The notes under the pieces: model-generated
The model's database searches: none
What the model saw: only the letters and a program-made list of their open reading frames with translations
Told to the model about the DNA's origin: nothing
Source of the DNA: a virus
DNA length: 64,000 nt
Virus record (IMG/VR): IMGVR_UViG_3300045988_113168
Reading direction: 5' to 3' (one strand)
Part shown: positions 35,250 to 64,000 of the stretch, piece after piece
Layout of the letters: each line of letters begins with the position of its first letter
Numbering within the stretch: the first letter of the stretch is position 1
Position numbers and translations under genes: made by a program

Positions 35250-36416
35250 ATGATAAGACGTAAAGATAATAATGGCAAAGTTTTAAAAGACGGCGAGAGC
35301 CAGAGAAAGGATGGGAGATACCAATATAGATGGACAAACAAACTTGGAAAACGCTCAATAATATACGCCACTTCACTTAAAGAATTGAGAGAAAAAGAAG
35401 CTGAAATCCAAGAAAAACTTAATTTGGGTACAACGTCTACTTCAAAAATCACAGTGTACCAATTAGCAAAAAGACATCTCGAAGAAACAAAACTTACTAT
35501 TAGGCCAAGCAGCTATAAAACAAAATCGCAGAATTTGAAAATCTTTCAGAATCACCTAATTGGGGAAATGAATGCAACTGATATTTTAGTGCGCGATGTA
35601 AAACAATTTGCACGAGAATTGGATAACGAAGGATATTGTTATACAACAATCAGAGATGTCATGTCTTTAGCTAGACCGGCATTTCAAGAAATGTTTGATG
35701 AGAATATAATTCCTAGAAATCCATTCGTTTTTAAATTAAATACAGTTGTCAAATGTGACTCAAAAGAAAAAGAAATATTAACAGAAGAGCAGTATCAAAA
35801 TCTGATCAAGTTCATGAAATCTAGTCGAGTATATAAAAGGCATGTTGGGATGGTGATGCTTTTGCACGAGACAGGACTTCGAGCAGGAGAATTATGCGGG
35901 CTAACAAAAAAGTCATTTGATTTTGATAACAACACTGTTACTATATCTCATCAGATGGTGTACGATGGAAAGAGCGGCGGGCTGTATTTAGCACCTACAA
36001 AAACAGAAAGTGGGATAAGGACTATCCCATTATCTAAAGACGCCATCATTGCTTTTGAAGAAGCGGTAAAACAACGTCCGATTGTAAAAGCAGAGAGAAT
36101 AATAGATGGGCAAGCCGACTTCTTGTTTATAGCAAAAACTGGAAGGCCCTATACGAATAAAAACCTTGTTAGAATTTTTGAAGGACTAATCAAAGCATAT
36201 AATAGTTGCCATGATGAACCATTGCCTGAAGTCACTGCCCACAGTATGCGCCACGAATATTGTACACGGCTTGTCAAAGCCAAGATGGATGTTAAATCGG
36301 TTCAATACCTCATGGGGCATTCGTCGCCCGATATAACCTTGAAAGTGTATACTCATATCTTAAAAGAAGAGACCGAAGCAGAGGCAATCAAACAGTTTAA
36401 TAGGATTGTTTCCTAA
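35250..36416 (+). CDS. int: tyrosine recombinase/integrase, Tn916-Int-like
   Basis: N-terminal RKDGRYQYRWTNKLGKRSIIYATSLKELREKE arm-binding domain. Catalytic R...HSMRHEY...LMGHSSPDITLKVYTH. Confidence 0.95.
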   Translation: MIRRKDNNGKVLKDGESQRKDGRYQYRWTNKLGKRSIIYATSLKELREKEAEIQEKLNLGTTSTSKITVYQLAKRHLEETKLTIRPSSYKTKSQNLKIFQNHLIGEMNATDILVRDVKQFARELDNEGYCYTTIRDVMSLARPAFQEMFDENIIPRNPFVFKLNTVVKCDSKEKEILTEEQYQNLIKFMKSSRVYKRHVGMVMLLHETGLRAGELCGLTKKSFDFDNNTVTISHQMVYDGKSGGLYLAPTKTESGIRTIPLSKDAIIAFEEAVKQRPIVKAERIIDGQADFLFIAKTGRPYTNKNLVRIFEGLIKAYNSCHDEPLPEVTAHSMRHEYCTRLVKAKMDVKSVQYLMGHSSPDITLKVYTHILKEETEAEAIKQFNRIVS

Positions 36417-36922: not shown

Positions 36923-37372
36923 ATGGACATTTATGAAGAACTGCATTCGCGCTATATTCAACTTTATGCTAGCGCCATGGATTTGAATAAAGAATATCAT
37001 ATGAAATTTGATTTGGTCATGAAAAAATATCAAAAAATATGGGATGATGGATTTAGTGTTTTTCCGGCTACAAATATGATGAATTTTATGGTTCCTTCAA
37101 AAAGGAAACCGGAAGATGAGGAGAAAGAGCTCTCGCTTCTTATGGAGTGGACTGCAGATAAAGTGTTTGATATTGTCGTCGAAAATTGGTTAAGCAAACT
37201 TACAAGAGAGCAAGTCGTTTTTATGTTAAACGCGATATCTGAACTCGATTATAATGCTCAGCTTTCTTTTGAAAAATCCCACTCAATCACTCCGAAACAA
37301 ATATTGAACGTTTGGAATAAAACGCACCAAGAAGCTGAAAATATTTACATGATGCCGGAGTTCGAATCATGA
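36923..37372 (+). CDS. hypothetical protein (accessory cassette gene 1)
   Basis: AAGGAG RBS. 149 aa. No recognisable motif. Confidence 0.6.
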   Translation: MDIYEELHSRYIQLYASAMDLNKEYHMKFDLVMKKYQKIWDDGFSVFPATNMMNFMVPSKRKPEDEEKELSLLMEWTADKVFDIVVENWLSKLTREQVVFMLNAISELDYNAQLSFEKSHSITPKQILNVWNKTHQEAENIYMMPEFES

Positions 37373-38403
37373 AAAAAGAAACGTATCTTCCGCTTGATAT
37401 TTTGAAAAAAATTACGGCGCATTACCCTAAAGCATGGGAGCAGATGGAAATGTTTCATAATGCAAACGGGGAACCAAATCTGGGAACGTGGCCTGAATGG
37501 TGCTACGCCCCTATGAGCGCTGCGTTGGCGGTGGCATCTCAAGGATATGATTTAAACAAGCTCCCTATTGATATAAGAATGGAGATAACATCTATAGCTC
37601 AGGCGATATTTGCGTTGGCCCCGTGGCGACTAAGTAAAGAGGTCTATGTTATTGACGAAGATTTAAAAGACCTTTTGTTTGAGCAGGACGGAGAACTCGA
37701 TGTCCCTAACGAAATATTATTGCAGCTTCCGTATCCGTGCTTTTATGTGGAACTTCCAAACACATATTATAGGGCAGATAAAATACATGGGTTCTTTGTG
37801 ACATTAGAATATGATGTTATCAATGGAGATAAAGAATTAAAACCGGTTTTTCTTACTGACAACGGAGATATATTCAGCTATTCCATTCATATTGGAGCAA
37901 AAACAATAGAAGAAAGCGTGGATATGCTTGATAAGCAGGCGCTTGAAAATACAAACGGAGATAAAGAACTGAAACGTTTGGCATTAAGAGCGATGCAGGA
38001 TTCAGCAGAAACAAAAATATTTCTAAAACAAATCCTTCAAGTAATATTATATATTCTTGCACAGAACGCAGAAATCACGCCAAGTTCTGAACAGTCTTTT
38101 ATCACCAAAAGAGGAAAAACACTCAAGGATAAATATTCTGAAATTCGAAAGTGGGATGTTGGCATTCGTGTTGGAGCTGCGATAAGACAGCAAAAAATAC
38201 GCGAGCAGTCTGAGTGGTCGGAACGCAATCAAAGCGGACATAATTCGCCACGTCCTCATATACGTCGCGGTCATTGGCATCATTTTTGGACAGGCCCAAA
38301 AACACAGCCCGAAGAACGAAAACTTATCTTAAAGTGGTTGTCACCCATGACCGTTGCCGCAAATCCAGATGACACACCAATTGTACTTCATAAGGTAAAG
38401 TAA
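37369..38403 (+). CDS. hypothetical protein (accessory cassette gene 2) with C-terminal PRPHIRRGHWHHFWTGP motif
   Basis: ATGA overlap with gene 1. 344 aa with a basic His/Trp-rich C-terminal block. Confidence 0.65.
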   Translation: MKKETYLPLDILKKITAHYPKAWEQMEMFHNANGEPNLGTWPEWCYAPMSAALAVASQGYDLNKLPIDIRMEITSIAQAIFALAPWRLSKEVYVIDEDLKDLLFEQDGELDVPNEILLQLPYPCFYVELPNTYYRADKIHGFFVTLEYDVINGDKELKPVFLTDNGDIFSYSIHIGAKTIEESVDMLDKQALENTNGDKELKRLALRAMQDSAETKIFLKQILQVILYILAQNAEITPSSEQSFITKRGKTLKDKYSEIRKWDVGIRVGAAIRQQKIREQSEWSERNQSGHNSPRPHIRRGHWHHFWTGPKTQPEERKLILKWLSPMTVAANPDDTPIVLHKVK

Positions 38404-38629: not shown

Positions 38630-38677
38630 AAAAAATGGGGTACCAGTCCAATTAAGGATTGATACCCCATTCGTTTT
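38630..38677. terminator. bidirectional terminator between convergent modules
   Basis: ATGGGGTA (38635-38642) / TACCCCAT (38663-38670), flanked by an A-run and a T-run. Confidence 0.6.
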
Positions 38678-38912
38678 ATATCAGCTCGATATCGCTTGGC
38701 TCAACATAGCCTGACACATTTACTGAGATTGGATACTTACCAATACGACTTTCAAGATTTGTCACTCGATACCGCCCATTGACGAGTTTTCCATCGTAGA
38801 TATACCACTCACCCCGGCGCTTCATTCCGCAGTGAGTCTGGCTGTTTGAAAATAAAATTCCGTCTAATTTAATTTTATCTCCTGCACGCAATGTCTTCTG
38901 GTTGTCCGCCAT
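38676..38912 (-). CDS. small SH3-like cell-wall-binding domain protein, translationally coupled to the endolysin
   Basis: The start ATG shares one nt with the endolysin TGA (TGATG). GDKIKL...GEWYIYDG..VNGRYRVTN...VSGYV resembles lysin C-terminal SH3-type domains. Confidence 0.55.
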   Translation of the reverse strand: MADNQKTLRAGDKIKLDGILFSNSQTHCGMKRRGEWYIYDGKLVNGRYRVTNLESRIGKYPISVNVSGYVEPSDIELI

Positions 38913-39559
38913 CAAAACGAACCCCATGTAGCTGGCCCACAGATACCGTCAGCACTCAAGCCATGCGCCTTTTGCCATTCCATCAGTTTTGTCTTAGTGC
39001 CTACTCCAAAGATACCGTCCGCTTTTACGCCTAGATGTCTCTGCAGCACGGTAACTGTATACGAGATGCCGCCAGTGCAATCTTTCGCGCCCTGACGAAT
39101 CGTAGGCATGATTTTACTCACTGATACATAAGCAGTTCCAGCCTTACTGATCCAGCGAGACTTCCAGCTCCGCACATCAACATGAACAAAGCCTCCTGTT
39201 AGCTGTACTCGACTGTAATAGCCGATGCCGCCCCGCTTCTGGAAATAAGACATGGAGGCCAAATATAGCGCAATCCGAATTGGGTCAACACCTTTGATGG
39301 TAACATCCGCCGCCGTACCCAAACAATGCTGACTGCGAGGACTGCCGCCGATGGAAATATTGTAAGAAGGAGAGCGGTAGCCAGAGTTGATATGGACAGG
39401 CTTACCAAAATGAGCCCGCACCTGTTCAAGAATGTAGACAAGTTCTGTATCGATTAGAACAGTGTCACTGTGGTCAGAGCAGGCGAACTCATAGACGGAA
39501 AAATGAGCTGACACCTTTTTGTTCCAATCTTTCTTCATTGAGTATGTATTTACTGCCAT
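38912..39559 (-). CDS. endolysin: peptidase M15 plus PG_binding_1 domain
   Basis: SGYRSPSYN...SQHCLGTAADV...FVHVD (Zn peptidase M15). C-terminal LQRHLGVKADGIFG...GLSADGICGPATW. GAGGTG RBS. Confidence 0.85.
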   Translation of the reverse strand: MAVNTYSMKKDWNKKVSAHFSVYEFACSDHSDTVLIDTELVYILEQVRAHFGKPVHINSGYRSPSYNISIGGSPRSQHCLGTAADVTIKGVDPIRIALYLASMSYFQKRGGIGYYSRVQLTGGFVHVDVRSWKSRWISKAGTAYVSVSKIMPTIRQGAKDCTGGISYTVTVLQRHLGVKADGIFGVGTKTKLMEWQKAHGLSADGICGPATWGSF

Positions 39560-39569
39560 GCGGCGCACC

Positions 39570-39890
39570 TCAATTCTTCTTCAACTCATTCTCGATTTTC
39601 TCATTCTGAATGTCCAGCTCCTTGACGGCAGCCTCGATCATCATGTCGATAGTCGGAGTAATCTTGACGCCCATCTTTTCAAGAGCAGCGATAACATACT
39701 TCTTCTTGTCAGCTTTCTTGATAACACCAGTTGCGCCGACCTTCTCAGCAGCGCGAACGGTCATCCGGACAAGCTTATAGACGCCAATTTTTTTGAGATA
39801 GGGGATACCATAGACCATAAAAGCAGTACCAGCACCTGCGACGACTAGCTGGGCAATAGTAGCAACAACCTGATTGAAAAAGTCCATCAT
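39570..39890 (-). CDS. holin (LL-H-like)
   Basis: AGGAGG RBS. N-terminal TM helix. ...ITPTIDMMIEAAVKEL resembles the LL-H holin family. Directly upstream of the endolysin. Confidence 0.6.
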   Translation of the reverse strand: MMDFFNQVVATIAQLVVAGAGTAFMVYGIPYLKKIGVYKLVRMTVRAAEKVGATGVIKKADKKKYVIAALEKMGVKITPTIDMMIEAAVKELDIQNEKIENELKKN

Positions 39891-39955
39891 AATATACCTC
39901 CTGATAAAAATAAAAGACCCCGAACACATCGTTCGAGGTCATGAATCACGTGATC

Positions 39956-40459
39956 TTATTCTTTTGGTTTCAAAAAACCATTAGTGCGTAGCATTTCGTC
40001 ATATACGCGCCCCACGTTCTTGATGGCGAAGGGCATCTTGTTGTTCTTGTAGTTGGAATGAGTCTTACAATAATCTTCATACTTCCCAATGACATCAAGG
40101 ATATCATCAAAGTCCTCTTCGGTGTGGCCGAGCCCGCGAACAAGCTCATTATTGAAGCGCAGCACCTGACTACGATAACCGTCAGCTTTGGTTTCTTCAC
40201 CCTTTTCGATGTGGTTATCTAGCTTTTTACGAGTCTCTTCTTGCTCGGAGCGAATATCTTTGAGCTCGGATTTAGTTTCCTTGATCTCGTTCATCACACC
40301 GGCATTCAGGGCGTTTCCAATGTGAGTGGCTACCTAAGACCACGGATTGATCTCGATTTTAGAGACTTGTATCACTGACATAACAACGGCGATCAATCCG
40401 CCGCTCCCGGCCATCACTGAGCCGAGATGATTTAGGAAAAAATTCAATAATTCGTCCAT
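39956..40459 (-). CDS. lysis-cassette membrane protein containing an in-frame TAG (codon 42)
   Basis: ATG at 40459 after a GAGGTG RBS. A 41-codon TM segment, then TAG at 40334-40336, then the same frame continues into the 113-aa ORF 39956..40297. That ORF has no RBS of its own. Confidence 0.6.
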
Positions 40460-40490
40460 ACGATTTTAATCACCTCGATTCTTTTTTGTA

Positions 40491-40519
40491 TTGACAAATT
40501 TTGCACATCATGATATAGT
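40491..40519 (+). promoter_or_regulatory. near-consensus promoter, antisense to the late operon
   Basis: TTGACA - 17 nt (ending TGA) - TATAGT. Confidence 0.65.
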
Positions 40520-52994: not shown

Positions 52995-55508
52995 TCAAGT
53001 GGTCGATGGGTTATTGTTCTTATTCACGTCAGAGCGTAAATCAGGGAAGTATTGGTCAAGCATCCAGTCTTGATAGAGGTTATATTTACTTTCCTCTCCA
53101 TTGTGGCCTACAATATAGGGGTAATAGGGGAAATAGCGGCTCATTGTCAGAGACATTGTGCCCTCTCCAAGATTGATACTAAAGTTCTTAATGATCCAAT
53201 CGACCGGAGTTTTACTGTTCAAATATTTTGCTGCATATTGAATTTTTTCGTTTACATCGAGCCACGGAACTAACAAAATAGGCACCACCAACCCATCGGT
53301 TAATCGTGCCTTCTTCCATAATTCATATTTAGCAACTTCCATTGCCTTTTCATCCGTGGTATAGTTGTCATAGTCTCCGCCCGAAAGTATTTCATTGCGA
53401 CGACCAATTTTTTCAATTGAGAATTTTGCGTTATACAAATCATCGATATTGTCTGGATCAGTCATGCAGACATATTCAAGATTATCGCAGTTTTCTTCTT
53501 TTTTTTCTGCGGCAAGTTTATCGCCGGTCGGTACAGTATCTACCAATTTGACCATAGCATGAGATTGCTGCTGCCCAATAAAATAGAAGTGCTTTGTATC
53601 AGGGAACCACTGAATGACATAATACTTTCCCGCTTCCATGATAGAAGGTTCCTGCTCAACGTCGTTACCATCAGCGTTAGGAACAGATTTATAAAGCAGG
53701 GAAGTTTTTGTTGTAGTCTTCTGTTCAGTCCCGCCACCTCCATCGGCCTTAACTTCTGTTGTCACAAAATTAACAATTATATTCAAGGTTTTGCTTGTGA
53801 TTTTTGCAGGCATGATAAACGATATATTCGCTTCATCATCAACAGCAAGTTCTTTTACGGTCAGTGTAAGAGAATTCTTTTCGGAAGAATAAGTTGCAGT
53901 CGAAGAATATGCGTCAGAATCGATTGTAGCACCAAACACTTCAACACAGTTTCGAACCGTAGAATAATCCACTGTGGCCGACTCACCATCTGCCGTCACC
54001 AAACTTGCAAATAAATCTGGGTCGAGTACAGGCGGGTCATCAAATCCACTCGGAATTTCGTGACATACGAACACGTCATCATCGAAATACATCTCAAATG
54101 GATAGTAGAGGTCGCGCAACTCAGTCAAAATCTGCCACAAAGTTGTACCAGTCTCATATTCCAAATCGTAGGGAACATTACGCGTCCAATAATCAATCAC
54201 GCATTTGCTAAACTCGCTCATCGGCTGTTCAGTTAAGACTGTTTTAATAACAGGAGCGATACGTGTTCCTTTGTTGATTTTTGTTTTTAGACCAGTCAAC
54301 TGTCCAGCCAAATCGCCATTCAGTCGCGCCACAAGATCTACGCAAGAGCATTGCACTGTATTCGTAGTTGCGTTATATGTAAATCCATTTGACGAGATAG
54401 AAAAGCAACCTTGATTAAACCAGTGAACGTCTTGATTTTTAGAAAATACATTTATACGTTGCACAGATACTTTTTCGAATTCTTTATTGAACGACTCATT
54501 AAGCTTCTTCTTCGCTTGAATAACCTCGTCTTGAACATCGTGCATAGAATAACCAACATAAATGCTAGTAGTACCGTATTCTTCTTGAAGCTCTTTTTCA
54601 CTCCAACCAGCAATAGCACTGACATCAGCAGCAGATAACATACTACCGTTTACTGTTTGTCCCTGTATTGCGGCAATCATATTATGAACCTTAACAGATT
54701 TTCCCCAAAGTGTCATAGAAATACCTGTTTTATCTTTGAGTAGAATCGTAGCCGGATCGGTAGATGTACCAATAACTCTAGAAAGGTACTTGGATATTTC
54801 TGAATTACATAGAGGGATTAAATCACCATCATCAGGTTGAAAAAGAGGAGTGTATGCAATTTGTAGACCATTAAATTTATCGTCGCAACCAAGAACAGTA
54901 GAATAATCTCCTTTATTGATTATGGCTTCCGGGTCTGGTTCAAATGCTTTTTTGAATTCTGAAAAAACTAAAGAACTAAGCCATTTCCCTATGGTATTTA
55001 CAAAAGTCGTCTCACCATTCATCTCCTTTACAAATTTAGAATAGTAAGACATATTGTCATCGTTCCATTCAATCACGCCACGATTGATGTTGTCGATATT
55101 CCCGTATTTTGCATGACCTTCTTGAGTGATTTTTGAAACTAAAGCATTATATTCTGCTTTGGCTTTTTTATATCCAGCAGATTCTTTTGTCTTTTTTTCA
55201 AGTTCTGGGTACGAGAGGGAAGTAGTTTTGGCTCTTCCTTTTAGTCCGATAAAAACACGAACATTTTTGCTTATCCAGTCCTCCTCATCAAAAGCGGAGA
55301 CAACACTCTTTTTGCCGAGATACAACGTAGTATTAAAGGTGCGACGAATGTCTGACTCCGAATCAACACTTACAGTTCCATCAATCGCAATGCCTTCCAA
55401 AGAATCTACAGTTGCGAAATCTTTGTCCAATAAATCAATGCGACAATATATATGAGGAGAATGGCTTTTTAAAAGAGCGAGGTCTTCATCTGTAGGTAAG
55501 TACTTCAT
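52995..55508 (-). CDS. tail-associated/baseplate hub (Tal-like) protein
   Basis: 837 aa directly after the Dit-like gene. The N-terminal IDGTVSVDSESDIRRTFNTTL pattern is typical of sipho tail-tip proteins. Confidence 0.6.
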   Translation of the reverse strand: MKYLPTDEDLALLKSHSPHIYCRIDLLDKDFATVDSLEGIAIDGTVSVDSESDIRRTFNTTLYLGKKSVVSAFDEEDWISKNVRVFIGLKGRAKTTSLSYPELEKKTKESAGYKKAKAEYNALVSKITQEGHAKYGNIDNINRGVIEWNDDNMSYYSKFVKEMNGETTFVNTIGKWLSSLVFSEFKKAFEPDPEAIINKGDYSTVLGCDDKFNGLQIAYTPLFQPDDGDLIPLCNSEISKYLSRVIGTSTDPATILLKDKTGISMTLWGKSVKVHNMIAAIQGQTVNGSMLSAADVSAIAGWSEKELQEEYGTTSIYVGYSMHDVQDEVIQAKKKLNESFNKEFEKVSVQRINVFSKNQDVHWFNQGCFSISSNGFTYNATTNTVQCSCVDLVARLNGDLAGQLTGLKTKINKGTRIAPVIKTVLTEQPMSEFSKCVIDYWTRNVPYDLEYETGTTLWQILTELRDLYYPFEMYFDDDVFVCHEIPSGFDDPPVLDPDLFASLVTADGESATVDYSTVRNCVEVFGATIDSDAYSSTATYSSEKNSLTLTVKELAVDDEANISFIMPAKITSKTLNIIVNFVTTEVKADGGGGTEQKTTTKTSLLYKSVPNADGNDVEQEPSIMEAGKYYVIQWFPDTKHFYFIGQQQSHAMVKLVDTVPTGDKLAAEKKEENCDNLEYVCMTDPDNIDDLYNAKFSIEKIGRRNEILSGGDYDNYTTDEKAMEVAKYELWKKARLTDGLVVPILLVPWLDVNEKIQYAAKYLNSKTPVDWIIKNFSINLGEGTMSLTMSRYFPYYPYIVGHNGEESKYNLYQDWMLDQYFPDLRSDVNKNNNPSTT

Positions 55509-56167
55509 GTTGTACCTCCTACCGGCAAATATTCGCTCAGTCCATTACTGTACATATCATCTTCACTCTCAATAGATCCGATTTCGACAAAGTTGAAACT
55601 CAACGTACCTTTGTCATAATGCTCAGAACAACTTGTAGTAACACTGCCATTTACTCCAATTAGCCACTCACGCCCATCAAACATTTTGAGAACTTTTGCG
55701 TCTCCGTTAGTAAGCCATGCTGAGATTTCTTTACGGTAATCATTTCCACCGTCAACATCAAATTCATCTTGAGCCATATCGAATTCAATACCAACACCCG
55801 AAAAATCACCAGAATAATAGTTCGCTTCATTGCCAAAATACAGATAGGGGTATTTGCTACTCATGGTTTCGACGATAGAAGCAGTGCGTTTTAGCTCAAC
55901 ACTGTCTACCTTTGGCTCAAGAAGAATGTGATAAGATGTTTCTCCATCTGTAATAATTGCGCCATCAAATTCACTGACTACTATCTTTTTAACATAGCCC
56001 TTTTCAATAGTATTAACAACAGGAGACACAGCATATTCATAAGGCTGTTTGCGCCCAGCCGCATACCAGTCAGTGTGTTCCATTATGACATATCCGGTAT
56101 TTTCTGAATGCAATTTTATTCCATGAATAGTATCAGAGAATGGTTTAGTGACGTTCTTTTCGGGCAT
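55505..56167 (-). CDS. distal tail protein (Dit-like); possibly the C-terminal part of a TAG-readthrough fusion
   Basis: YRKEISAWLTNGDAKVLKMFDGREWLIGVNG is Dit-like. Same frame as 56276..57361, with only two TAGs between them. Confidence 0.6.
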   Translation of the reverse strand: MPEKNVTKPFSDTIHGIKLHSENTGYVIMEHTDWYAAGRKQPYEYAVSPVVNTIEKGYVKKIVVSEFDGAIITDGETSYHILLEPKVDSVELKRTASIVETMSSKYPYLYFGNEANYYSGDFSGVGIEFDMAQDEFDVDGGNDYRKEISAWLTNGDAKVLKMFDGREWLIGVNGSVTTSCSEHYDKGTLSFNFVEIGSIESEDDMYSNGLSEYLPVGGTT

Positions 56168-56275
56168 GACGCTAATCCTAAAATACGCGATAATATTCTT
56201 ATAATTTACATTCCAAGATGATTTATTCTAAGTTCCAACATTTCGTGTCTTGTTAAGCATTGCAGAAATCGATTT

Positions 56276-57361
56276 CTATAGGTTTTTCATAAAAGAACTA
56301 AGAGAGGAAAAACGATCCAATGCTTCATTATAGGTATATTCTTTTCCGTCGGAATAATATTTAATGCTTGTTTCCGTATAGCCTAAGAATTTTTGGTTTT
56401 TGTCATATGCTATAATTCTAGCAATATATCCATCAGCCGATATTTCGACTGACTTTAAATCACTTGCCGGGATTAGATTAGTGCTCATTGAGATGTTATC
56501 TGTAGTAAATACTCCACTTTGACTAACATAGCCATTTGACCAGTTGGGCAATAAGAGCAAATCGTTTGATAAATCAACTTGTTTTTCATAAATAGTCATC
56601 CATGTGGTATCTAAAGGCTTTTTGCGCTTAAACCGAAGATGAGTAATGTCACTCTTCACATTGGCTGGATATTTTGCAAAAAGGTTAATACAACCACGCC
56701 ATTTATCGTTTCCTGCATCAAAAATTACTCCATCAATTTGTTCACTATATTTCGTCTTAAACTGTTTGAACCCAGTATCAAGCTGGTAACCTCCAATTGA
56801 TTCTGCTTTAGCACGAACATAATAAACGCTATTATTGTCAAGGCCATCAACATAAAAACTCTTCATAGAGTCACGGTGATAAAAACATTGTGACTTTTTG
56901 ATTTCGTTTTTATTAGAGTCATAAAGATAATATTCATATCTATTGATAACTTCACCCTCAGCCGTTTTGTAGGTATAATCACAATCAAAAGAGTATGAAG
57001 GTGTAAAGATAATTTTAGAAGAGGAAATGTCGGAGAATGCCCTGAATTTAATGGAAGGTTTCTCGTGACAATAAAACAGAATCTTGTCACTATATTCGCT
57101 GAAAGTGTTCGTACCAGTTAATCTGCAACGAATCATGATATAATAAGGGTCATGCTGATTTACAAGGACCCCACCTTTAATTACAAATTGTCGAGCTAGG
57201 CCAGTTCCAGTGGGAGCTACTGTGCCAAATTTATAAACAGTGCTATCTTTTGACTTGAAGACGATATAGGCAACTAAGTCAATATCGGCATATGCTCCGA
57301 ACTGGAATGAAGCGTCTTCGTTAGCACTAAATACATTGATTTTTGATAGAATTGGTTTCAC
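56276..57361 (-). CDS. tail protein with beta-sandwich repeats; ends in TAG
   Basis: GTG start after a GGAGGTG RBS. The terminator codon at 56276-56278 is TAG. Confidence 0.6.
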   Translation of the reverse strand: MKPILSKINVFSANEDASFQFGAYADIDLVAYIVFKSKDSTVYKFGTVAPTGTGLARQFVIKGGVLVNQHDPYYIMIRCRLTGTNTFSEYSDKILFYCHEKPSIKFRAFSDISSSKIIFTPSYSFDCDYTYKTAEGEVINRYEYYLYDSNKNEIKKSQCFYHRDSMKSFYVDGLDNNSVYYVRAKAESIGGYQLDTGFKQFKTKYSEQIDGVIFDAGNDKWRGCINLFAKYPANVKSDITHLRFKRKKPLDTTWMTIYEKQVDLSNDLLLLPNWSNGYVSQSGVFTTDNISMSTNLIPASDLKSVEISADGYIARIIAYDKNQKFLGYTETSIKYYSDGKEYTYNEALDRFSSLSSFMKNL

Positions 57362-58759: not shown

Positions 58760-61700
58760 TTAATTTCGCTTACTCATTTTTTGAGAAAGTTTGTTGGGAA
58801 GATTGCGGACAATTTCGTTTGCCAAATCTTCTGCTCCACCAACAGGGTTCTGAATAACAATATCTCCAATGGAAATATCAATATTAGAACCGCCGTTAGA
58901 AGATAGTGAAGCCGTTCCGTACTTAGACATCTGATCCTGGAACCAAGCATCTGGATTGCCACCCATCTCGAAGAGACGAGAAGTAATATCTGCAGGAACG
59001 ACTCCATCGCCGGTTTCAAGATAAGTATAACGTCCAGCTTGCGGTTGACGAACCAGAAGCTCAGAACCTTGCTCGTCAACATTATACTTGCCGGATTTTT
59101 GAATGCTTCGAGAACCAGAAGCTTTTTTACCAGTGATTTTTTCTTTAATTTTGTCAACAAAACTCTTTTTCTCAGAAGAACTACTGGAACTATTAGAAGA
59201 TTTGCTAGACGAAGTAGAAGAACTCTTGTCTTTATCCCGAGAACTACTAGAAGAACTACTCTTACCCGTAACTGCATTATAAGCACTCTGAACGCCGTTC
59301 TTAATACTACTAACAATATTAGAACCAGTCTTCCATGCAGAAGAATTAGTGATTTTATCTTTGGTGGAACTTATAGCATTGTTTACCTTACTTCCTACCG
59401 TAGAGTTGTCCCATTTCTCTTTGACATTAGAAGCAATTTCTTTAGTCGTAGTTACTAATCCACTGACAGCGTTGTTTACTTTGCCGCCGAGCCAAGAATT
59501 GTTCCATGCGTTTTTTGCACTACTAACTGCGTTGCTTCCAACTTCATAGATGTCTTTACCAAGCTCTAACAAGCTCTTACCGCCAGAAACAGTCGTGGGA
59601 GTACCACTGCCGCCACCAGAAGACAAACTACTCGAAGATGTGGAACTATTGCTGGTAGTATTTTTGGTAGTAGGAGTTGTCTGACCTTTATCGTACAGAT
59701 CGTTTCCAATCGTACCAAAACTATCACGAATAGAAGAAATAGTGTTATCGCAACTCTTAGTGATGCTATCATAAGCTTTCCCCATGACCCACGTAATATT
59801 TTCACTAAGATCGATAGCACCGGGCTCAACATTCTTCCAGGCATTTGCCATTTGGTCAGGGAGAACTTTATTCAAAGTCTCTTCACTCTTGGATTCGATT
59901 GTACTATATGCGCCATTGATTGTGCTTTGAGTATTATCGGCCAAGTCACGGACACCGCTTTCGGCCATGCCCCAGCTGCTATCGAAACAAGCTCGCATAT
60001 CATAGAGCATCTTTTCGGTATCACCGGTGGTATCAGCCCAAGCTTTAGAAATAGTAGACTCCGTTTTAGCACTCAGGTTGCGGATACCACCACCACACTG
60101 ATTCCAACTATTCTTCATCTTACTAGAGATGGAATCCATTGCATTAGAACAGCTATCTTTCATAGAATTGAAAGAGTTCGCCATTTTATTAGCGTTAGAC
60201 TCACTCATCTCGTCAGTCATAGATGCCATTTTGTTAAAACCAGCAGTATATGTGTTTTGCATTGACTGGAACAGTTTTTTCGTGATACCCTCGACCTGTT
60301 CTGCGTTCAGTGCGGTATTGTCTCCGATAGCGGCATAGGTATCTTTAACCAGCTTCTGCATATTGCTATACATTTCTTTACTGGTTGCATCAATCTGATC
60401 GTCGCTCAAACCAACCTCTTTTGCCATATCCTTCCATGTCTTCTCAAACTGAGATTTCATAGAATCAAGCTGGGCAAGTGTGTTGGATTTGGAAGAAGAA
60501 ATGAGATTGTCAAGAGGATTACCTGTACTACTATTACCAAAGCCAAAGAATTTACTAATTGAATCCTTTATTAAGCTTCCGCTATTTATTAAGCCTCCGC
60601 CGTTTATTACGCTTCCGATATTCTTTATCTTATCAAACCATTTCGAAATCGAAGAGTTTTGACCAGAAGAGTTTATAGTGGACTTGGTTTTATCTGCGAA
60701 TGTAGTAAACTTTAAATTCAACCCGCCTAGAGTCTTAACGCTCTTTGAAAGCAGCGTAGGAATAAGGCCGGTCTTATTATCATCACGAATATCGTCAACG
60801 GCCTCAACTACTTCATCAACTTTAGAGTCAATGGCAGTGTTTTTGCGAGCTTGAGGCGCAGAAGTAATAGTCGTATATCCGCTGGAAGCAGCAGAGTTGC
60901 GAGAGCTAGGTATTTTAGAGGCTACGTTCTTGACCCAGCCGATAGGATTCTTGGCGATTCCCATTAAAGTCGCGGTTTGTTTTGCGGGGATAACTCCGTC
61001 ACCTTTTTCGAGTTGAGTCAGGCGTCCCTTCTCGGGGGAGCGAACGATTATCTCTTCGCCTTCCTCATCGACATTATAAGTACCAGCCTTTTCGACTTTC
61101 TTAGTACCTTTAGCAAATCCAAACAGTTTACCAACCCAGCGAATTGGAGCAGTCACAATGTGTCCGATTGTACCAAGTAAGCCGCGTTTCTTTGTACCAT
61201 CGCTAGATGTGCCACCAAACAAGAATTTTCCAATGCCACTAACGGCTTTAGTGATCGTTTTGCCAATACTCTTAACTATTTTACCAAGAGTTTTGCCAAT
61301 ACCAGTTACAGCTTTCCCGATAGTGGAACCGATTTTTGCGAGACCGTTTGTAAATGAGCCGCCACCGATTGCACTGACAGCAAGCGTGCCGCCAAGGAGA
61401 ATCGTACCGATGACAGGAATATGACTGACTGCAGCCGCAATAGTTCCAGCGACACCAGTACCACCTGCAGTACCTACAGCGGCAGTTACCGTTCGACCAA
61501 TTCCTTTGAAAATACCAGCAATACCAGAAAACAGCTTGGTTCCACCCAATGTAGTACCGATGCCACCGAAAATTGAGCCAAGCCCACCAACCGCTTTTTG
61601 GGCAATAGATGCGACTCCACTGAATCCCTTCTGGAAGATTGACATTAGACCGCCACTGCCAGAGAAAATTCCCTGTGCTGCAGAGACTACAGTCGTTTTT

Positions 61701-64000
61701 ACATTGCCAAGAGATTTTACAATAGCCTGTCCTAGTTTAGAAATCTAACTAGTGCTCTCTCCAAGGAACCCTTTTGCTGCAGCGTACTTATTAGAGCCTC
61801 CAACGCCAAGGAAGCTCTTTCCTGCGTCCAAGAGGCGTCCCCAGAATCCTTTACCAGAACTCTTATCAGAGAACGTACCAACCGCACGCTGCAGACGATT
61901 CTACAGACCCGTAATTCCACCGTTCTGAGTAGAACCATTCAGATTGCCAAGCACGTCTCCGAGCTTAGTCAGTGTATCAATCAGTGTCTCAAGCTTGGTG
62001 ATAACATTAGAAACATTAGTTGCTCGCTGGACCGCCTTCATATTGGAGACAACAGAGGCCATAAATCCATCGTAGTGACCTTCCATCTCTGCAAAAGTCA
62101 TAGCCTCGAACTGAGACGTATATTTCAGTTTCTTCTGATAGTCGTCCCAGCTTGTGCCAATAAGGTTAGTGGCTTCCTGAACCTTATCTTTGAGCTTGTT
62201 CAGCCGGTCGATTTCTTCCTGTTTCTTATACTCACGGCGTTTGCTGTTGAGGTCACTCTGAGCGTCACGAACTGTACTTGCATCAGCCTCCCACTCGTAA
62301 CCATTCTCGCCATAGACGCGAGTGGTCTTATTGGCCTGTGCTTTCGCGAGAGCATCCTCGGCTTTTTGCAGTTCAATCGCACGCTCTTGAGCATCATTCT
62401 GCTCATTCAGCGCGTCGATACGTTTGTCGATAACATCAATCCATGCATCACCCTGAATCTTCAGGTCGTTGGACTTTTTATCATTGAGCTTATTGAAAAT
62501 ATCAAGCAGTGAAGAGAAAAGGTCTTTAAGGTTAGAGATGACAGACTGTAACTTTTGAGCCTCAGTACCCATCCCCTTCATATGGTCGGTAACATCCCAA
62601 GTACCATTTGCTACCTTTTCAAGAATTTCGGCGTAACGATCTCCGAGGTCAGTACCCTTATATGTTTCTGCAAGGACTTTTAGCTGCTCAATGTAAAGGT
62701 CTCTAAAGGCTTCCTTGTTAAAGACGAGTTTCCCGCCTTCTTCTTTAAGGCAAGCCGCATACTTTGGATTAAGAGACATATACTTCTGGATGGTATCTTG
62801 ACTTAATTCTCCATAAGCGTTATACTCATCTACAATATCAAACAAATCGTTGAATGCACTCTGGTAGTCATCCATTGAATTATTGATTTTGCTAAGAGTA
62901 CTTCCGATTCCGTTAATATAATCCTCAATGCTGAGTGCATTGCTTGCAATCTTATTCTTTGCATCTTCAAAGCCCTTGGCAAGATATGTTCCAGCGGCTC
63001 CGCCAGTCTCCTTACAAGCTGCAATCATCTTGTCGAGACTATCAAGGAACATATCCTTAAAAGCGTCGCTGTTGTAATCAATATCTCCAGTCTCGGGATT
63101 CAATGCCCCAGCGTACTTGTCATTCGTAAACAAGTCTGTGTTATCATATAGGTCACGAATTGCCTGATACTTTTTCTCAACATCGTCAGAATCTAGCAGT
63201 CCAAACGGATTGTCAATCTTGTTTTTGCTAACATCGGACAGCCCAGAGAATGCGGATTTTATAGCGTCTGTCTTTTCTTTGGCATCTGCCATCGCGGTGC
63301 CGTAGCCCTTGATGGCATCAGTTAACTGCTCAAAAGAAATGGTTTCGGAATCGACACTAGAGTTCAACCAGTCAAGAATCTTCTTCATCTCGCCAGCAGA
63401 CTTGCCACCATCATTAGCTGCATTCGCTTCCTCAAGCTGCGCTCTGACAAAAGTGCGGAATTTTGCGGTATTAAGTTCAAGTTTTCCATTTTGCTCAGTT
63501 AAGCAAGCAGTAAACTTATCATCAACACCGATTAACGACTTCATGGTGTCTGCACTAATATAGCCATATTGGTTATATTCTTTCATCGCTTTTGTTAAGG
63601 TATCAAATGCGGATGCAATATCAGATACAGACTTCGCGGTAGATTTATTGTTCTTGTTGGTCTTATTTGTCGGGAACCCATTAAGCTGATTTGTTAGTTT
63701 TTGTCCACCCCTTAGAGCAGCGTTCATATTGGTGTACAACAGAGAAAGCTGAGTATTTGTGCGATTCGTGATTTCCTCTAGCTTTGCAGGATCTACACCG
63801 CGTTCACCTGCTTTTTCGACTTCGTTCGCAAACTCTTGAGCCGCGCTATATGTAGCGGTTGCCGCAGTAGCATTTTTCAAAGCGGGGAGAAGATTCTCAA
63901 GAGCAGTCTTTTCGGCCTTGGTTTTCTCTTTTAGGTTATCAGTGCTTTCAGCTGTGTCATCGGCAGTAAGGTTTGCAACCTCATGTTGTGCATTAGAAAG
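58760..64000 (-). CDS. tail tape-measure protein, 5' end off-window, containing two in-frame TAG codons
   Basis: A single frame is open from 64000 to 58760 apart from TAG at 61901-61903 and 61745-61747. Helical N-terminal half, Gly/Lys IGK repeats, a Ser-rich tract, and the duplicated motif YNVDE.G.E..VR.P..GR.T.LE.GDGV.PA. Confidence 0.85.

Follow-up and report, generated by a model that had tools for sequence, protein, structure and literature searches.

Borges et al. (preprint 10.1101/2021.08.26.457843) observed only two forms of stop-codon recoding in gut phages, TAG-to-Gln and TGA-to-Trp, and proposed that recoding restricts the synthesis of late and lysis proteins. The first of these, code 15, is reported to have been confirmed in gut phages by proteomics (Peters et al., PMC9523058). 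A further example is phAss-1 of the Phassvirus group, a phage of ~136 kb from the human gut virome that carries 36 tRNAs, contains TAG in 28% of its ORFs, the holin gene among them, and has its TAGs aligned to Gln (PMC10607447).

Here we analyse a gene in the lysis cassette of a gut phage, at 39956..40459 of a 64,000-nucleotide stretch of viral DNA (the window), whose codon 42 is an in-frame TAG. Comparison of this and other late genes across related genomes suggests, with a probability that we put at roughly 0.75, that TAG specifies tryptophan in the late genes of this phage family. TAG-to-Trp reassignment is the plastid code of Balanophoraceae (NCBI translation table 32) and, to our knowledge, is known solely from there. 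The reassignment would be the same in both cases, one being that of a plant plastid and not of a virus, and we know of no evolutionary link between the two. A full-text literature search for TAG or UAG as tryptophan returned papers on organelles and protists only, and none on phages; TAG-to-Trp recoding of late genes is quite probably a variant undescribed for phages, and we found no account of this assignment in any bacterium.

The family shares with the recoded gut phages of code 15 and code 4 the occurrence of in-frame stops in structural and lysis genes, a phage suppressor tRNA, and early genes, the integrase gene included, that are free of the recoded codon. Unlike in those phages, recoding here is sparse, a crude motif search of the sampled loci found no phage-encoded TrpRS, other class I synthetase-like ORF or release factor, and genomes within the family carry a CUA allele of one tRNA, a CCA allele or neither. 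The family differs from code 15 phages in particular in that both residue alignment and tRNA ancestry point to Trp and not to Gln. Likeness to phAss-1 extends to genome size, habitat, TAG in the tape measure and other late genes, a tRNA(CUA), and the lack of a dedicated synthetase (PMC10607447), whereas the family has ~12-15 tRNAs and sparse, Trp-aligned TAGs. Membership of the phAss-1 group was ruled out: megablast of positions 1-25000 and 38600-64000 of the window against a phage collection returned GenBank MT835573.1 as its sole phage-record match, with none to phAss-1, and the tRNA count and TAG alignment differ.

Genomic context and TAG usage in late genes

Replication, integrase and late-module genes span the window, which is therefore phage throughout. 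It belongs to a temperate, siphovirus-like gut phage with relatives of ~130 kb, which are represented in IMG/VR by contigs of 110-140 kb. Early genes occupy the plus strand (1-38620), and the late module lies on the minus strand, starting past 64000 and ending at 38676. Products encoded within 1-35000 include DNA polymerase III alpha, a RecD2-like helicase, a ligase, RecJ, NrdD/NrdG, ThyX, dUTPase and FolD, and an integrase gene and an AcrVA2-like gene lie beyond them (Table 1). One relative is integrated next to a tmRNA gene and smpB.

Table 1. Positions of the features discussed, numbered along the window
Feature	Position	Strand	Remarks
Integrase gene	35250-36416		
AcrVA2-like gene	37369-38403		Homology to annotated genes
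Endolysin gene	38912..39559	minus	Peptidase_M15_3 + PG_binding_1; no in-frame TAG
Holin gene	39570..39890	minus	Phage_holin_6_1 / phrog_6918; no in-frame TAG
Terminator-like hairpin and T-run	39916..39940	minus	Between the 167-codon gene and the holin gene; consensus scan only
Gene for predicted N-terminally membrane-anchored, C-terminally helical protein	39956..40459	minus	PHROG 37604; 167 codons counting the TAG
12 codons from the TAG to the first possible restart codon	40298..40333	minus	VATHIGNALNAG; conserved as protein
In-frame TAG, codon 42	40336-40334	minus	Sense codon, most probably Trp
N-terminal 41 codons	40337..40459	minus	Hydrophobic helix at ~residues 12-31, then conserved INPW motif
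Shine-Dalgarno GAGGTG	40471..40476	minus	11 nt 5' of ATG 40459
Tail protein gene	55505..57361	minus	TAGs at 56278-56276 and 56230-56228
Tape measure protein gene	58760..64000	minus	Runs past the window end; TAGs at 61903-61901 and 61747-61745

Direct reading of the minus strand confirmed the outline in an earlier note on this DNA, which had described an ATG at 40459 with a GAGGTG ribosome-binding site, 41 codons, a TAG at 40334-40336 and, beyond it, a 113-residue ORF whose GTG/ATG start had no ribosome-binding site. The start codon (ATG 40459-40457) opens a segment of 41 sense codons, MDELLNFFLNHLGSVMAGSGGLIAVVMSVIQVSKIEINPWS. Past the TAG this frame stays open for 125 codons up to TAA 39958-39956, encoding VATHIGNALNAG followed by V (GTG 40297), M and NEIK..., and the peptide across codon 42 reads ...IEINPWS-X-VATHIGNALNAGVMNEIK. 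The GTG/ATG pair lies 36 nt 3' of the TAG, and inspection of gene starts in the window found no GGAGG-like ribosome-binding site ahead of GTG 40297 or ATG 40294.

The 61 genes of the window end in TAA (35) or TGA (26) and never in TAG. All three apparent TAG stops run in frame into ORFs that have no ribosome-binding site: the nominal ATG 61645 of the tape measure gene is preceded by none, and the nominal downstream ATG 56167 of the tail gene by no good one. The window thus holds five in-frame TAGs, all in late genes, one in the lysis-cassette gene and two each in the tape measure and tail genes, and each of these genes is conserved, with uninterrupted homologues. The suggestion that the TAG is a device peculiar to the lysis cassette was not borne out, as four of the five lie in other late genes. 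TAG is enriched in late genes, where TAG/TGG counts are 5/107 as against 0/176 in early genes (Fisher p=0.008); in relatives, two singleton TAGs do occur in early genes, both at invariant Trp positions. Within the window, two of the five TAGs align clearly with Trp, one with Phe or Trp, another falls where the alignment is variable, and for the last no relative has a sense codon at that site. The column of the first tape measure TAG contains F 42, W 24 and TAG 6 in an alignment of 81 tape measure proteins, and the second tail-gene TAG is matched by Trp in both relatives (2/2) that have a sense codon there.

A candidate suppressor tRNA outside the window

No tRNA genes or Rfam family matches were found within the 64-kb window, and the tRNA genes of the family, which form two clusters, were located by walking outward through relatives with ARAGORN and Rfam, followed by a rescan. 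Cluster 1 lies ~5 kb before the window start in relatives and encodes Leu (three copies), Pro, Gln(UUG), Gly and Met tRNAs, with no suppressor. Cluster 2 is found in relatives ahead of the head genes, at a point ~20 kb past the window end, and its slot between tRNA-Ser(UGA) and tRNA-Met is filled by either a tRNA(CUA) or a tRNA-Trp(CCA), never by both in one locus. The CUA version was found in 50 of 80 cluster loci and the CCA version in 6; a second set gave 44 CUA and 11 CCA. One CUA variant has an odd T-loop and was missed by ARAGORN, while Rfam scores it as a tRNA at 45.3 bits with the anticodon loop CU-CUA-AA. In many TAG-bearing genomes ARAGORN reported a tRNA-Lys(UUU) and no CUA tRNA, and decoding of TAG by this tRNA-Lys was considered and ruled out, since a CUA tRNA recognized by Rfam lies 5 nt downstream. 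An example of the tRNA(CUA) sequence is GCGCCTATAATTCAAAGGTAGAAGTCAGGTCTCTAAAACCTGTATGTGCTGTCTCGAAAGCAGCTGGGCGTGCCA.

The CUA and CCA tRNAs have an invariant acceptor stem in common (G1-U72, C2-G71, G3-C70...), along with the discriminator G73 and an encoded CCA end, and compensatory changes are seen in 13 of the 21 pairs of their cloverleaf. All six CUA variants are nearest to the phage tRNA-Trp(CCA), at 65-78% identity outside the acceptor stem and anticodon arm, with a modest margin over other tRNAs. Because it occupies the same slot as tRNA-Trp(CCA), has the same acceptor stem and is most similar to it, the suppressor looks like a phage tRNA-Trp in which C35 has changed to U.

Presence of the tRNA goes with use of the codon. 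At least one supported in-frame TAG was found in 46 of 50 loci with tRNA(CUA) as compared to 12 of 30 without it (p=8e-7), and of those 12, some have no complete tRNA cluster detected. Loci were linked by 4-kb probes and contig names, as 60-nt probes proved non-specific. Contig names allowed a TAG42 copy of the lysis-cassette gene to be matched to cluster 2 in 14 contigs, and every one of these carries the tRNA(CUA). From these relatives we infer that the genome to which the window belongs also carries tRNA(CUA).

Which amino acid TAG specifies

Residue assignments were made from ORFs bounded by TAA or TGA only, with TAG-containing ORFs compared to all others; a TAG site was counted only if both 25-residue flanks aligned, and only on the late-gene coding strand. 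This gave 62 informative groups of late-gene TAG sites, in which the majority residue is Trp in 38, Gln in 10, and Phe or Tyr in 4. Trp makes up at least 90% of the aligned residues in 30 of the 38 Trp-type groups (e.g. 213/213, 188/188 and 140/140). With codon frequencies of 1.07% for TGG and 2.31% for CAG, Trp would be expected under neutrality at 32% of the sites that are Trp or Gln, as compared to the 38/48 seen (p=2e-11, binomial). Trp-type TAGs are common to up to 41 loci and Gln-type TAGs to at most 2, while some other widely shared sites align with Glu (26 loci) or with Ser/Ala (23 loci). The share of late-gene Trp positions that are occupied by TAG is ~4-6%.

A first tally over all strands had Gln (CAG) about equal to Trp. 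It was set aside, as its Gln-type groups lie largely in antisense ORFs; this antisense signal is attributed to synonymous CTA/CTG changes in Leu codons that read as TAG/CAG on the opposite strand. Mutational proximity alone (TGG to TAG, CAG to TAG) was also ruled out as the source of the pattern, by the codon counts, the breadth of sharing and the invariant Trp columns. The coding strand is G-rich, which would suggest C-to-T rather than G-to-A pressure, so that mutation bias would not be expected to favour TGG-to-TAG changes.

The same machinery could operate with a tRNA(CUA) that is charged with Gln, which would make this an ordinary code 15 as in crAss-like and Lak phages. Such a reading is unlikely, while retaining a real share of the probability: it agrees with all documented phage TAG recoding, including the one TAG form seen in the Borges preprint, with the Gln predicted for the tRNA(CUA) of the phAss-1 group, with the Gln that the collection's gene caller placed at codon 42, and with the 10 of 62 sites that align with Gln. 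Against it, if TAG meant Gln, silent CAG-to-TAG changes should prevail, and changes from TGG to TAG at invariant Trp residues should be purged, whereas Trp-type groups outnumber Gln-type groups despite there being twice as many CAG as TGG codons, the Gln-type TAGs are singletons or doubletons, and invariant Trp residues are replaced by TAG in many genomes. In slot and acceptor stem, the suppressor also resembles tRNA-Trp(CCA) and not the phage tRNA-Gln(UUG). A further point in favour of Gln is that U35 is an identity element for GlnRS, and that the E. coli amber suppressor su7 (supU), a laboratory mutant of tRNA-Trp that gained the anticodon CUA by the same C35-to-U change, is largely mischarged with Gln and inserts mainly this residue. 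Unlike su7, the tRNA(CUA) described here is a natural allele in many related phage genomes, and the comparative data indicate Trp.

We therefore favour the reading of TAG as tryptophan, in which the tRNA(CUA) would be charged with Trp. By extension, this ~130-kb temperate phage family of gut Firmicutes probably uses a UAG = Trp code that arose from one anticodon change, CCA to CUA, and whose reassignment is in progress. The coexistence of CCA alleles, CUA alleles and genomes with neither, together with TGG/TAG polymorphism at invariant Trp sites, is what would make the family a snapshot of such a process.

A single gene across codon 42

The conceptual fusion across the TAG matches PHROG 37604 (E=2.3e-37) in two stretches, one on either side of the TAG, along a profile of 168 positions. 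Uninterrupted homologues are present in the Faecalibacterium phages Roos (orf34, XAI97464) and Pioen (orf31, XAI97540), which belong to the same protein family at 43-45% identity over at least 90% of the length, carry Arg at the TAG position (...IKINPWS-R-LAKIIGHALNA...) and likewise adjoin a gene of endolysin size (218 residues). A protein search gave 104 relatives of the 167-codon gene product, and a scan of reference genomes, whose pattern required NPW and which returned homologues of at most 47% identity, gave 157. Of the latter, 80 were read and all 80 are contiguous polypeptides, from prophages of Oscillospiraceae, Faecalibacterium, Lawsonibacter, Agathobaculum, Dysosmobacter, Acutalibacter and Lachnospiraceae.

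The junction consensus in the homologues, ...INPW[ST]-[W/A/R]-[IL]A..IG.A.N..., is in keeping with the contiguous NPWS-x-(I/V)A..IG.A.N segment that the earlier note had given for related proteins. The family alignment shows conservation of N38, P39 and W40 ahead of the TAG, with W40 nearly invariant, and full invariance of G48 and N52, both encoded after the TAG but before any possible restart codon. The 12 codons between TAG and restart are therefore conserved as protein and must be translated. Homologues of 60-75% identity have TGG (Trp) at codon 42, while more distant genomic homologues have A (51), W (21) or K (4). On this comparative evidence 39956..40459 is a single 167-codon gene interrupted by an in-frame TAG, as had been proposed, and the accompanying proposal that synthesis of the full protein depends on amber decoding is supported by the same evidence.

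The TAG itself recurs in 34 independent assemblies. The identical TAG is found in GenBank MT835573.1, a Mexican virome contig whose similarity to the window is confined to the lysis module; the two copies of the gene are separated by 9 synonymous changes and no non-synonymous ones. TAG is likewise present at codon 42 in all 10 of the metagenome contigs that were read from 133 collection blocks; these ten were found by an exact-protein look-up, of which their zero non-synonymous differences are a consequence, and the MT835573.1 comparison is the only one free of this bias. Among 27 IMG/VR loci with the gene, 25 have TAG at codon 42, 23 of them with TGG at codon 40 and 2 with TAG at both codons. 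The 2 copies with the double TAG (NP*S*VATHIG, asterisks marking TAG), in which Trp40 is replaced, are nearly identical to the gene of the window; in a sister clade the arrangement is reversed, with TGG at codon 42 and TAG in place of the nearly invariant Trp40 (NP*SWIATQ). Sequencing error or a recent nonsense mutation is ruled out by the recurrence of the TAG in assemblies that differ at synonymous sites, and the TAG at codon 42 is real and old.

The treatment of the gene in public collections varies. The database protein P0001 is the fusion with Gln at position 42, and every contig that encodes it has TAG there, from which it appears that the collection's gene caller used code 15 on these contigs. 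Other public annotations give a fragment of 112-118 residues (P0051, P0053, P0075; UniProt A0A8S5VRG8). Such calls would suit a true stop, with a 41-residue membrane peptide and a separately initiated protein of ~112 residues, or a decaying pseudogene, and the GTG/ATG pair shortly past the TAG could serve as a start for the second product. This is very improbable: neither possible start has a ribosome-binding site, the intervening 12 codons are conserved with two invariant residues, and every homologue with a sense codon at this position is a single polypeptide. A true stop would also cut the tape measure and tail genes into three pieces each, no other window gene is terminated by TAG, and the tRNA(CUA) accompanies the TAG42 allele in every paired contig. 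That TAG encodes pyrrolysine or another non-standard residue is highly improbable, as the 'Pyl' label that ARAGORN gives the tRNA is its automatic default for a CTA anticodon, and although some CUA variants lack the canonical D-loop GG and T-loop TTC, slot and acceptor stem are consistent with descent from tRNA-Trp(CCA), the aligned residues are Trp or aromatic and not Lys, and a crude motif scan of the sampled loci found no class I synthetase-like ORF.

Lysis neighbourhood and protein function

The 167-codon gene lies directly upstream of the holin and endolysin genes, a position that the earlier note had given and that profile matches of both neighbours confirm. In an AlphaFold2 model, a C-terminal helical bundle (~residues 75-165) is predicted with pLDDT >90, and the N-terminal hydrophobic part is poorly modelled. 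A Foldseek search of the PDB with this model gave no fold match (best E=2.6), and structure matches in BFVD are to uncharacterised phage proteins only. The gene's place in the cassette and the hydrophobic helix at the N-terminus would fit a holin or antiholin; the product has no match in Pfam and none to a lysis-annotated PHROG. We can say only that the predicted product is a membrane-anchored, lysis-cassette-associated protein, and any role as partner or regulator of the holin would be a guess. Codons 40 and 42 are immediately C-terminal of the predicted membrane helix, and Trp is typical of the membrane interface.

Proposed mechanism

In the mechanism we propose, TAG, a rare sense codon of mainly late genes, would be decoded by a phage tRNA(CUA) from the cluster outside the window. 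This tRNA would be the phage tRNA-Trp(CCA) with its middle anticodon base changed from C to U, and would most probably insert Trp. With the tRNA(CUA) present, synthesis would extend to all 167 residues, placing a Trp-Ser-Trp motif just past the predicted membrane helix, and without it only the 41-residue peptide would be produced. A need for the tRNA may hold back the tape measure, tail and lysis-cassette proteins until cluster 2 is expressed, or in the prophage, in line with what the Borges preprint put forward for recoded phages. Timing control of lysis through TAG is plausible, in view of the late-gene bias, and any control through 39956..40459 would be indirect, because the holin and endolysin genes themselves are free of TAG.

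Implications

If TAG is tryptophan in these phages, several consequences would follow. An annotation error would be exposed, in that pipelines using code 15 put Gln in place of Trp, while others truncate the gene to 112-118 residues. The natural tRNA-Trp(CUA) would be a candidate for amber suppression in Firmicutes, and the phage would be a temperate model for testing if late and lysis proteins stay silent until the tRNA is made. The family would also represent a new natural genetic code outside organelles, reached by the simplest route of reassignment, a change of one anticodon base whose old and new alleles both still circulate within a single phage family.

In-frame TAG codons in early genes of relatives

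Among the early genes of the relatives, we found two singleton in-frame TAGs, one in a RecJ-like gene (locus L064) and one in the gene for Pol III alpha (L042), both at a Trp position that is invariant in the other sequences (76/76 and 35/35, respectively). TAG is thus biased towards late genes rather than strictly confined to them.

Surroundings of the lysis cassette and a probable prophage or assembly boundary

In the window, a gene for an AcrVA2-like protein, whose counterparts carry the annotation of this anti-CRISPR family, has the integrase on one side and the lysis cassette on the other. A reverse transcriptase is encoded just upstream of the cassette in some relatives and in the Faecalibacterium phages Roos and Pioen, and we suspect a diversity-generating retroelement targeting a tail fibre gene. 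Within the 170-nt gap upstream of the TAG-interrupted gene of the cassette lies a near-consensus sigma-70-like promoter, on the opposite strand and directed away from the gene. This match may be due to chance, since a promoter scan turned up more such sites in shuffled sequence than in the region itself.

The window integrase has phage genes on either side, and the gene order of the window is thus the unintegrated form. One relative is integrated directly beside smpB and a tmRNA gene whose tag peptide is DNNNYQLLAA. In IMG/VR, many contigs of the phage family (L592-L613) stop 2-2.7 kb past the TAG-interrupted gene, which probably marks a prophage or assembly boundary just beyond the lysis cassette.

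Coordinates of features in the window and in related or homologous loci
Feature	Location	Strand	Remarks
tRNA cluster 1 and adjoining 737-residue ORF	L023 4745-5886; L048 1927-4140		relatives
tRNAs with unusual anticodons	L027 4515-4588, L031 4608-4683, L359 2068-2146 and similar		ARAGORN
tRNA(CUA) variant	L434 12564-12638
AcrVA2-like gene, 344 residues	window 37369-38403	+	counterparts annotated PF26125 in all related loci
Reverse transcriptase (RVT_1)	L015 8197-9357, L018 8197-9357; L002 2055-3116, L003 1943-3121
Sigma-70-like promoter	window 40491-40519	+	TTGACA, 17 nt, TG-TATAGT; 11/12 matches
tmRNA gene and smpB	L015 14965-15313		beside integrated relative
Apparent tape measure gene	MT835573.1 23547-30005		in-frame TAG (915 + 1236 codons)

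Phage tRNAs and module exchange

In the relatives, cluster 1 lies ∼5 kb upstream of where the window begins and contains 7-8 tRNAs (Leu-CAA, Leu-UAA, Pro, Gln-UUG, Leu-UAG, Gly, and Met). It is adjoined by a 737-residue ORF that, by the appearance of its sequence, looks like a polynucleotide kinase-phosphatase/RNA ligase, and this candidate enzyme would suggest tRNA repair. ARAGORN calls among the phage tRNAs also include the A34 anticodons His-AUG, Tyr-AUA, and Ser-ACU, as well as an Ile tRNA with anticodon UAU, which in some genomes takes the slot of a Met/Ile-CAU tRNA. One variant of the suppressor tRNA(CUA), with a T-loop devoid of the GTTC motif (GCUGU-CUCGAAA-GCAGC), was missed by ARAGORN and scored 45.3 bits as a tRNA in Rfam; suppressor-tRNA surveys by ARAGORN alone would count too few.

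MT835573.1, a 30-kb virome contig, is unrelated to the window except for the lysis module, and its own apparent tape measure gene is also interrupted by TAG. TAG-bearing modules thus pass between different recoded phages.
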